Below, one piece after another: positions 26,796 through 28,103 of a stretch of DNA of 46,456 nt. Origin of the DNA: Thermoproteota archaeon (GTDB lineage: Archaea > Thermoproteota > Methanomethylicia > Methanomethylicales > Methanomethylicaceae); NCBI GenBank assembly GCA_030055575.1, contig JASFYL010000004.1:1-46456 (forward strand), in the 5' to 3' direction. The translations under genes were made by a program, and so were the position numbers. A model generated the notes under the pieces. The model saw nothing but the letters and a program-made list of their open reading frames with translations, was not told the origin of the DNA and searched no databases. Every line of letters starts with the position of its first letter. Positions within the stretch are counted from its first letter, which is position 1.

Positions 26796-28103
26796 CTACC
26801 TGTTCCTGCCCACCGGGAACTTGACCGCTTCGGGGACCTTGTTTAGCTCCCTCAGGATTATCTCGGTGAGATCGCTCATCGACCTGACGAGCTTAGATGG
26901 GGGGCAAGGGTAAAGGACAGTCGCGTTAATCCAGCTGGCCTCCGGGGTGAAGATCACCCGCGGGCCAGCCTCGATCACGCTCCTGAAAGCGACTGGGCAG
27001 TTGCCCGACTCGCACGCGTGGAGCATCCCATCTATGTCTGGGCGGATGTAATCGGTGACGCACTTGACCAGGATCTCTCTGACCACATTGAGGTCGCTCT
27101 CGTACGCAAGGTTGAAGGTCACGGTTCCGACCCTCACGGGCGAGAGGCGGCTCCCGTAGGTAGCTACTATCTCCGAGAGGACGGTCGAGTTAGGCACTGT
27201 GAGGATCCTCCCGGTGACGGACCAGAAGGAGGACTCGTCTCCAACCTCCACTAGGGTAGTCATCAGGTACCCAATGTCCACGACTATGCCACGCACATCA
27301 CCAATCTTCACGCTGTCGCCGATGGTGTAAGCCCTCCTCACGTTTATGTAGACCCATCCGATGAAGTTCGAGATGAGCGGGCTGAGCGAGTAGGATAGGA
27401 TCAGACCGATCACCCCGAAGGAGAAGACGAATATCAGGAGCTCCCTGAAGACGAATGAGATTACCGCGGCGAGCGCGAGGGCGAGGAGTGTAACCTTAGT
27501 CACCCTCCCCACGGAGACCCTCGAGTGGAGATCGTCTATCTTAGAGATCAATAGGACATAGAGAACCTCCGATAATATCAGGGCAACTAGGAATATGACT
27601 GCAGAGAGGATGGACTCGACGACGTATTGCCCGTAAGGGAGCTTTTCGATGTCTTTGAGGAACATCGCGTAGAAGACGAGCAACACGCCCGCTAAGGACA
27701 GGTACACCACCAGCTTGCTCTTGGAAGGCCTACCCTTTGCGACGAGCATCCTCGCCCGCTTCATCCTCATGACAACTGCAATGAAACGGGCGAGCCTTAT
27801 GAACCTCAGCGAACGGAGTGCTGCCCCTATCAGGGGGAGGGACTCGAAGTAGGCGAAAAGATAAGCCGGCACCATTGCCAACAGGTCTATCCAGTGCTGC
27901 TTTACATAGCCGCGCGTTTCTTTTGACGACCTGGCATCCGCCACGAAGTCCGCGGCGAAGACCGAGCATATGGCCAGGTCCAGCGCATATACGACATCGA
28001 TCCAGAATTCCTCTAAGGGGACCATGAAGTCGACCACGAGAAGTGCTATCGAGAGTATCGCGAGCGCAGCCATCAGCAGCTCACGTGCAAACCCGGTGTT
28101 CAC
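26796..28103 (-). CDS. MscS-family mechanosensitive channel with an N-terminal voltage-sensor-like (S1-S4) domain
   Basis: MscS core: ISNFIG, YTIGDSVKIGDVRGIVVDIGYLMTTL, ILTVPNS, alpha/beta C-domain; N-terminal 110 aa with LDLAICSVFAADF, WIDLLAMVP and LRSLRFIRLARF. Confidence 0.85.
   Translation of the reverse strand: MNTGFARELLMAALAILSIALLVVDFMVPLEEFWIDVVYALDLAICSVFAADFVADARSSKETRGYVKQHWIDLLAMVPAYLFAYFESLPLIGAALRSLRFIRLARFIAVVMRMKRARMLVAKGRPSKSKLVVYLSLAGVLLVFYAMFLKDIEKLPYGQYVVESILSAVIFLVALILSEVLYVLLISKIDDLHSRVSVGRVTKVTLLALALAAVISFVFRELLIFVFSFGVIGLILSYSLSPLISNFIGWVYINVRRAYTIGDSVKIGDVRGIVVDIGYLMTTLVEVGDESSFWSVTGRILTVPNSTVLSEIVATYGSRLSPVRVGTVTFNLAYESDLNVVREILVKCVTDYIRPDIDGMLHACESGNCPVAFRSVIEAGPRVIFTPEASWINATVLYPCPPSKLVRSMSDLTEIILRELNKVPEAVKFPVGRNR

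Follow-up and report, generated by a model that had tools for sequence, protein, structure and literature searches.

The stretch of DNA considered here (in the following, the window) comprises 46,456 nucleotides of contig JASFYL010000004.1 from a Thermoproteota archaeon of the family Methanomethylicaceae. On its minus strand, at 26796..28103, it carries a gene for a 435-residue protein in which a Kv-type S1–S4 voltage sensor without a K+ pore and the full core of an MscS-type mechanosensitive channel are joined in one reading frame, a conclusion that is supported by sequence, profile and fold comparisons. The modules are known and their combination is new and surprising. It appears somewhat probable from the sequence that the protein forms a heptameric MscS-type channel in which a ring of seven voltage sensors shifts the tension gating or the inactivation. 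The fusion had been proposed before from the nucleotide sequence (the original prediction), and the open reading frame and the sensor motifs quoted there are all present in the translation.

A voltage sensor and an MscS core in one protein

The gene (open-reading-frame list and translation) starts with GTG at 28103 and ends with a stop codon at 26796–26798; the N-termini of the orthologues line up at the same GTG-start position. The voltage-sensor domain S1–S4 (aa 7–118; 27750..28085, minus strand, as are all segments of the gene given below) was delimited with Ion_trans, the KvAP match, AlphaFold2 (AF2), Foldseek and VIA-align. It contains the S2 motif LDLAICSVFAADF (aa 41–53), the S3 motif WIDLLAMVP (aa 71–79) and the S4 motif LRSLRFIRLAR (aa 96–106). 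The core of S4 (27786..27815) has an arginine at every third residue (R97, R100, R103 and R106), all four being invariant in 15 of 15 family members, and R113 and R116 follow further downstream.

The four segments were taken in the original prediction for a Kv-type sensor, and the profile and pairwise searches agree with this. The Pfam family Ion_trans matches aa 8–219 with 27.8 bits (cut-off 25), and in a phmmer search against the PDB the N-terminal part finds KvAP (2a0l, E = 2.4e-9 over aa 9–185) and the isolated KvAP sensor (1ors, E = 7e-9 over aa 9–122). Among 1.84 billion protein representatives, stand-alone channels of 270–274 residues with a TVGYGD filter match aa 8–161 with E = 8.5e-18, for example the Kv-type protein P0087, which is 35% identical to the fusion over this range. 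With KvAP and the small archaeal six-helix Kv channels (1ors, 2a0l, 6uwm; P0087, P0140, P0157) the fusion shares the same S2 and S3 acids and the same six S4 arginine positions. What it does not share is the pore: the pore helix, TVGYGD and S6 are missing, helix 5 is followed by MscS TM1 (TM, transmembrane helix), the chain past aa 157 aligns to MscS TM1–TM3, and the assembly would be a heptamer rather than a tetramer. Indeed, as had been predicted, neither GYG nor any other K+ filter was found anywhere in the 435 residues.

The residues on which a voltage sensor depends are strictly kept. All 15 aligned family members, the most distant at 50% identity, have D42, F49, D73, E87, R97, R100, R103, R106, R113 and R116, and D52 is nearly invariant. 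Adding six stand-alone Kv-type proteins, of which three are complete and contain the TVGYGD filter, leaves D42 and R97, R100, R103, R106 and R113 unchanged in 17 of 17 alignment rows, F49 and R116 being nearly invariant. The spacing of the charge-transfer centre is seven residues from D42 to F49 and three from F49 to D52. In Kv1.2, too, the aromatic residue of this centre precedes the inner acid of S2 by three positions. The ratio of nonsynonymous to synonymous substitution (dN/dS; Nei-Gojobori) for aa 1–118 is 0.06–0.25 in 10 of 10 pairs, the same range as for the MscS transmembrane core (0.06–0.25; nine pairs with usable dS) and close to that of the cytoplasmic part (0.05–0.18). These comparisons indicate that the sensor is under purifying selection and is maintained rather than decaying.

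The original prediction had several extra transmembrane helices between the sensor and the MscS part. A connector does exist there, but it is one helix (helix 5; aa 127–154; 27642..27725), which in the AF2 model connects S4, at its cytoplasmic end, with the outer side of the membrane, where MscS TM1 starts. Then follow TM1, TM2 and the pore helix TM3 (aa 158–256; 27336..27632), aligned by phmmer to residues 28–130 of E. coli MscS, and the MscS beta domain (aa 243–313; 27165..27377), which matches MS_channel_2nd (PF00924) with 42 bits (cut-off 20.2) and for which the genome search returns identical coordinates. The C-terminal alpha/beta domain of the MscS vestibule (aa 336–435; 26799..27098) was identified with AF2 and Foldseek; PF21082 has no sequence match in the protein, so that this domain is assigned by fold only. 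With this reservation the MscS part is as complete as had been claimed, and the phmmer match to E. coli MscS (E = 9.7e-8) pairs aa 157–350 with residues 27–210. An equivalog of E. coli MscS it is not, since the NCBIfam MscS subfamily model gives 32.4 bits at a cut-off of 321. Apart from Ion_trans, the Pfam scan found only PF00924 and a weak MAPEG match (E = 0.097), and none of the effector families of Ci-VSP, Hv1 and SLC9C1.

The TM1–TM2 paddle, TM3, the beta domain and the alpha/beta domain are common to the fusion and to E. coli MscS (2oau, 2vv5, 6rld; PF00924). In TM3, G230 corresponds to G101, G233 to G104, L234 to L105, Y238 to L109, P242 to G113 and N246 to N117; G230, G233, L234, P242 and N246 are invariant in the fusion family. 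The differences are five extra N-terminal helices, four of which are the voltage sensor, Y238 in place of L109, P242 in place of the kink glycine Gly113, an insertion of nine residues in the beta domain and a conserved pair of cysteines. The latter (C364 and C369, Cys-x4-Cys; 26997–27014) lie in a helix-loop of the C-terminal domain, are nearly invariant in the fusion family and are absent from the aligned region of E. coli MscS; they could be a metal or redox site.

The AF2 model of the full protein, calculated with an alignment of 37 rows, has a mean pLDDT of 80.3 and a pTM of 0.50. Its helices are S1 (2–27), S2 (32–59), S3 (63–87, broken), S4 (90–121), helix 5 (127–154), TM1 (158–184), TM2 (192–218) and TM3 (222–256), after which come the beta domain and the alpha/beta domain, the latter with pLDDT blocks of 79–95 save for the last few residues. 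Between S4 and helix 5 there is only a break at aa 122–126 and no long S4–S5 linker helix. Foldseek finds E. coli MscS, YnaI, MscK, MSL1, MSL10, YbiO and Flycatcher1 with this model (best E = 4.3e-13), in alignments that span whole MscS chains (256–267 residues; TM-score by target 0.57–0.67). With a separate model of aa 1–155 (pLDDT 68.8) the best three Foldseek matches are the KvAP sensor (E = 5.8e-4, 2.3e-3 and 3.6e-2), and with VIA-align against representatives the best match of the sensor model is the voltage-sensor domain of Kv4.2 (Z = 10.9; root-mean-square deviation 2.1 Å over 113 residues), the sensors of Ci-VSP and SLC9C1 also being among the fold matches. The modelled fold of the sensor region thus agrees with that of a voltage sensor, which does not mean that it proves one. 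The ESM Atlas returned only MscS clusters, with scores of 0.82–0.83, which are below trust level, and no cluster with both families. A complex prediction with two full-length copies (alignment A2) scored 0.01, which speaks neither for nor against an assembly.

The loop charges fit eight transmembrane helices with both termini inside. The S2–S3 loop and the turn between S4 and helix 5 (inside) contain four Lys/Arg each, and the S1–S2 and helix 5–TM1 loops (outside) are acidic. By these charges, therefore, both modules sit in the membrane in their native orientation.

Loci, conservation and origin of the fusion gene

The fusion is not restricted to the window. A word-indexed search, in which 8000 candidates were scored, returned 32 proteins at E ≤ 0.001, and 30 of these are members of the fusion family (50–100% identity); those with a named source come from Candidatus Methanosuratincola, Methanomethylicaceae or Methanomethylicia. 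The fusion is easily overlooked because the public names read "mechanosensitive ion channel" and because just 9 of the 30 proteins have a precomputed Ion_trans match. A scan of one genome per species (GTDB representatives) gave 12 loci, 10 of them full-length fusions, all in metagenome-assembled genomes of Methanomethylicota; the other two are weak sensor-only matches in bacteria. Two fusion loci are in records titled complete genomes, CP186953.1 (M. verstraetei LCB70) and CP130488.1 (M. petrocarbonis LWZ-6). No stop or frameshift was found in any full-length fusion frame.

Also the neighbourhood is conserved. Common to the full-length loci are genes for an ABC-2 permease and an ABC ATPase on one side and for a UDP-GlcNAc 2-epimerase, an NAD-dependent epimerase and a P-type cation ATPase on the other. 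Since the products of these flanking genes are 72–82% identical to the proteins encoded in the window, the gene in the window is the syntenic orthologue in a somewhat divergent species. The original prediction would have been refuted if no other genome had the fusion; the conserved synteny and the two closed genomes show that this is not the case. Within its clade the copy in the window diverges most: it is 66–71% identical to the others, which share 72–90% among themselves, and its excess change relative to loci L003–L023 is mostly in the sensor and the linker.

The genome bin of the window contains a second fusion gene (contig C61, 1555–2862; locus L002, 1495–2802), whose product is 67–68% identical to that of the window. 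Of the 97 contigs of the bin, C61 has the lowest GC content (0.47; genome 0.534), and among the 80 that reach 5 kb its tetranucleotide correlation is the lowest (0.52; median 0.92). Its fusion copy, moreover, shares 88% identity with the one in another genus of the family (L010/L019). On these three grounds the copy was rejected as a paralogue; C61 is probably a mis-binned contig.

How the fusion is distributed was determined in a sample of 400 genomes across the phylum other than that of the window. Of the 31 genomes that belong to the family of the window (by public names Methanomethylicaceae), 12 gave a full-length match (E ≤ 1e-20), as against none of the 369 genomes of other families, the lone match outside the family being a stand-alone Kv-type channel of 270 residues with TVGYGD. 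With aa 1–155 as query, 13 of the 31 family genomes gave a match, 12 in open frames of 435–454 residues and one in a 74-residue fragment at a contig end; the sole genome sampled from the sister family gave none with this query. Within the order, these queries detected neither a stand-alone sensor of similar sequence nor an unfused gene closely orthologous to the MscS half.

An exhaustive search of the 1.84 billion representatives returned 2496 matches at E ≤ 0.001. Only three of the best 150 span both halves (P0034 with 44% identity, P0035 with 40%, and the partial P0031), six are sensor-only, and 141 match only from aa 119 onward. The word-indexed search with aa 1–125, which is blind to independent fusions and to donors, retrieved the fusion family only (25 matches of 883 candidates, all with PF00924). 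Among the sensor-only relatives from the representative search is P0105 (270 residues), a stand-alone Kv-like protein with a non-canonical filter, in which the pore region reads TISTVAWPAG instead of TVGYGD.

In a quick maximum-likelihood tree of MscS cores, the 11 fused proteins form one group (SH-aLRT 100), which is sister to the unfused proteins P0036, P0072 and P0067; one fusion event would be the simplest reading of this tree. These three proteins and a group with four transmembrane helices (P0038, P0040, P0044, P0047, P0054) are the nearest relatives of the MscS half (29–39% identity) and share with the fusion the C-terminal ending KFP.GR.R, but they have no voltage sensor and at most one extra N-terminal helix, which comes after a basic tail. 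The junction in the fusion lies in the short basic cytoplasmic turn after S4. Alignments with Kv channels reach aa 148–161, and those with the unfused MscS-like proteins, whose extra helix follows the basic tail, start at aa 126–141. Whether helix 5 stems from Kv S5 or from the N-terminal helix of an MscS-like parent with four transmembrane helices is therefore ambiguous; a hidden Markov model of aa 122–160, which gives 10.7 bits on the MscS-like N-terminal helix versus 2.6 bits on Kv S5, suggests a weak preference for the latter parent. Under either origin the topology works without further change.

The genome has in addition a canonical MscS, a protein of 331 residues with three transmembrane helices and a Gly/Ala-rich TM3 (contig C34; locus L027, 1060–2055, minus strand), so that the fused channel is an addition and not the only valve. 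A stand-alone Ion_trans protein was not found in the genome of the window (88% complete).

Upstream of the GTG start (28104..28170, minus strand) there is an AT-rich box, TAAAGAATAAAAA, at 28146–28158 and a GGAG at 28115–28118, which possibly are an archaeal promoter and a ribosome-binding site. A scan for bacterial-type promoters, which does not cover archaeal ones, found no promoter-like sites upstream of the gene, and two terminator-like matches inside the gene are at chance level. The gene is separated from the divergently transcribed ABC ATPase gene by 482 bp (28104–28585), which is long for an archaeal genome of 1.4 Mb and contains only short unsupported open reading frames. Rfam had no match in the whole window. 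At 30427–32841 (plus strand) the window encodes a protein of 804 residues with an N-terminal hydrophobic segment, several Ig-like domains of bacterial type (Big_13, Big_7, Big_5, TIG) and a C-terminal transmembrane anchor. Judged by these domains it is likely a surface or S-layer-type protein, and it is 53–58% identical in the relatives, versus 72–82% for its neighbours.

How the sensor could act on the channel

The original prediction had suggested a channel that responds to both voltage and tension, or an exporter regulated by the sensor. MscS channels are heptamers in which TM3 lines the pore and the TM1–TM2 paddles face the lipid, and where MscS relatives have additional N-terminal helices, these lie in a ring around the outside. 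The fusion protein would accordingly assemble as a heptamer like other members of the MscS family, with TM3 lining the pore and a hydrophobic gate made by L234 and Y238. Seven voltage sensors, together with helix 5, would form the outer lipid-facing ring at the place where YnaI, MscK and MSL10 have their extra helices. A change in membrane potential would move S4 and displace helix 5 and the adjoining TM1–TM2 paddle; because S4 runs almost straight into helix 5, it could act on this helix directly, and from there the motion would reach TM1 via an outer loop of 5–9 residues. The shift of helix 5 and the paddle would alter the inactivation of the pore or its tension threshold, so that solute release after an osmotic downshock would come to depend on how energised the membrane is. 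Neither the polarity (whether depolarisation or hyperpolarisation favours opening) nor the physiological role is deducible from the sequence.

That the MscS gating machinery can respond to voltage follows from E. coli MscS itself, for which a gating charge of activation of just +0.8 and a strongly voltage-dependent inactivation are reported (PMC2217495). An added sensor could amplify such a response. There is close to an even chance that evolution has here produced, once, a voltage-gated channel with a heptameric MscS pore, whose seven canonical sensors would add a steep voltage dependence of many elementary charges, as compared with +0.8, to the gating by tension.

It should be noted that several observations weigh against a voltage-responsive channel. 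The Ion_trans score is barely above the cut-off, and divergent members fall below it (P0034 21.1 bits; P0035 no match). The region from S3 through S4 to the linker is the weakest in both models (pLDDT 49–68 for aa 81–130), the pTM of the monomer is just 0.50, and in VIA-align unrelated helical bundles reach Z = 9–10.6, values not separated from those of voltage sensors. The fold alone is thus not discriminating, and it is the sequence evidence that discriminates the voltage sensor from generic bundles. As to distribution, the fusion was not found in 18 of the 31 family genomes, which shows that it is dispensable; five genera have no match in any of their 10 genomes, eight of which are 90–98% complete. 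The linker and helix 5, finally, through which the motion would have to pass, have a dN/dS of 0.51–0.59 in the lineage of the window (versus two relatives).

In YnaI, MscK, YbiO, MscM, the plant channels MSL1 and MSL10, and Flycatcher1, all of which are among the sequence or fold matches, N-terminal helices are added to an MscS core as in the fusion, and in other MscS-like channels such extra helices act without voltage sensing. The sensor might be a lipid-facing outer ring as in YnaI and MscK that sets the tension threshold or the localisation, the gating not being controlled by voltage. Channels with such additions recur among the structural matches (YnaI, MscK, YbiO, MSL1, MSL10, Flycatcher1), conservation is lowest in the linker and helix 5 (mean pairwise identity 0.52 versus 0.62–0.71 elsewhere in the protein), and P0035 has lost part of the arginine ladder, keeping just three S4 arginines at every third position. 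However, six buried arginines, three buried acids and the S2 phenylalanine are invariant in the fusion family down to its most distant aligned members, and the charged pattern matches that of real Kv channels; a purely structural bundle would need neither. Unlike the sensor of the fusion, the extra helices of YnaI/MscK-type channels matched no voltage-sensor family, and eight long MscS-like proteins from the search (454–489 residues) had no Ion_trans match at E ≤ 0.01. A purely structural ring is for these reasons considered unlikely.

Quite unlikely, too, is the opposite case, in which the sensor is the main gate of a voltage-gated large-pore or anion/solute channel built on the MscS scaffold and tension is no longer needed. 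Some MscS relatives do have other primary roles, for example the cyclic-nucleotide-binding bCNG group and the glutamate exporter MscCG. A channel of this kind could be afforded by a genome that already has the canonical three-helix MscS of 331 residues for osmotic emergencies, and two gating positions do differ from E. coli MscS, the second gate residue being Tyr/Phe rather than Leu and the kink glycine of TM3 being replaced by proline. But nothing of the TM1–TM2 paddle or of TM3 has been lost, both align with their MscS counterparts, and there is no sign in the sequence of a loss of tension sensitivity.

It is very improbable that the sensor itself conducts, through an Hv1-like proton path or a gating-pore current, with the MscS part being independent of it. 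A gapless S4 arginine ladder and a hydrophobic S2 phenylalanine keep canonical sensors sealed. In the fusion the ladder is gapless from R97 to R106 and F49 is kept, and Hv1 is not among the phmmer matches against the PDB. This holds although isolated or unusual sensors can conduct, a topic that is treated in a review of sensor-bearing proteins (PMC10651576). Hardly credible, and largely refuted, is the last alternative, which the original prediction had itself raised, namely a chimeric assembly, or an MscS translated from the internal Met119 (MLVAKG, nucleotide 27749) with the sensor as the leftover of a decaying K+ channel: Met119 exists and the read support is thin, but independent assemblies, including the two closed genomes, have the same fused frame and neighbourhood without stops or frameshifts, the sensor has the low dN/dS given above, and Met119 is not conserved, 4 of 15 aligned members having Leu, Gly or Ile in its place, which argues against an MscS-only product from an internal start. 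The reads (four DNA runs of one hot-spring metagenome study, shares 0.08–0.12, at 90% likeness) are too thin for or against: they yielded identical contigs of 151–268 nucleotides at a depth of about 2, none of which spans the gene and which leave most of it uncovered, one (27517–27667) crossing the boundary between helix 5 and TM1.

What a voltage sensor on an MscS channel would mean

Voltage sensors are mostly regarded as modules of tetrameric pores and, in a few cases, of a phosphatase, a proton path or an exchanger. Sensors on effectors other than a tetrameric pore are known from Ci-VSP, Hv1, SLC9C1 and TMEM266. With these proteins the fusion has in common a modular S1–S4 domain with a non-Kv effector; unlike in these, the effector is an MscS-type channel (a predicted heptamer) and the host is an archaeon. 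The original prediction had not recognised the architecture as characterised, and this agrees with the literature: no description of a voltage sensor fused to an MscS-type channel was found in full-text articles, subscription-only papers, supplements and architecture tables being outside the scope of the search. For example, in the accessible text of a 2023 review of all sensor-bearing protein families the words "MscS" and "mechanosensitive" are absent (PMC10651576), and in that of a September 2026 review of MscS-like channels voltage appears only in the title of a reference.

If voltage does gate a heptameric channel through a ring of seven sensors, this would be a new class of sensor effectors, the first outside the tetrameric-pore, Hv1, phosphatase and exchanger types. 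A sensor on a seven-fold, lipid-gated pore would test how general the coupling between sensor and effector is, because there is no S4–S5 linker and S6 gate mechanism to rely on. With only 435 residues the protein would also be a simple prokaryotic system in which to study how one channel combines voltage with membrane tension. One of the hosts of the fusion, Methanosuratincola petrocarbonis LWZ-6, has reportedly been brought into culture. For the organisms themselves, a lineage of energy-limited methanogens, the finding would mean that solute release is coupled to the membrane potential, and it would suggest how their emergency valve is kept from wasting the ion-motive force.

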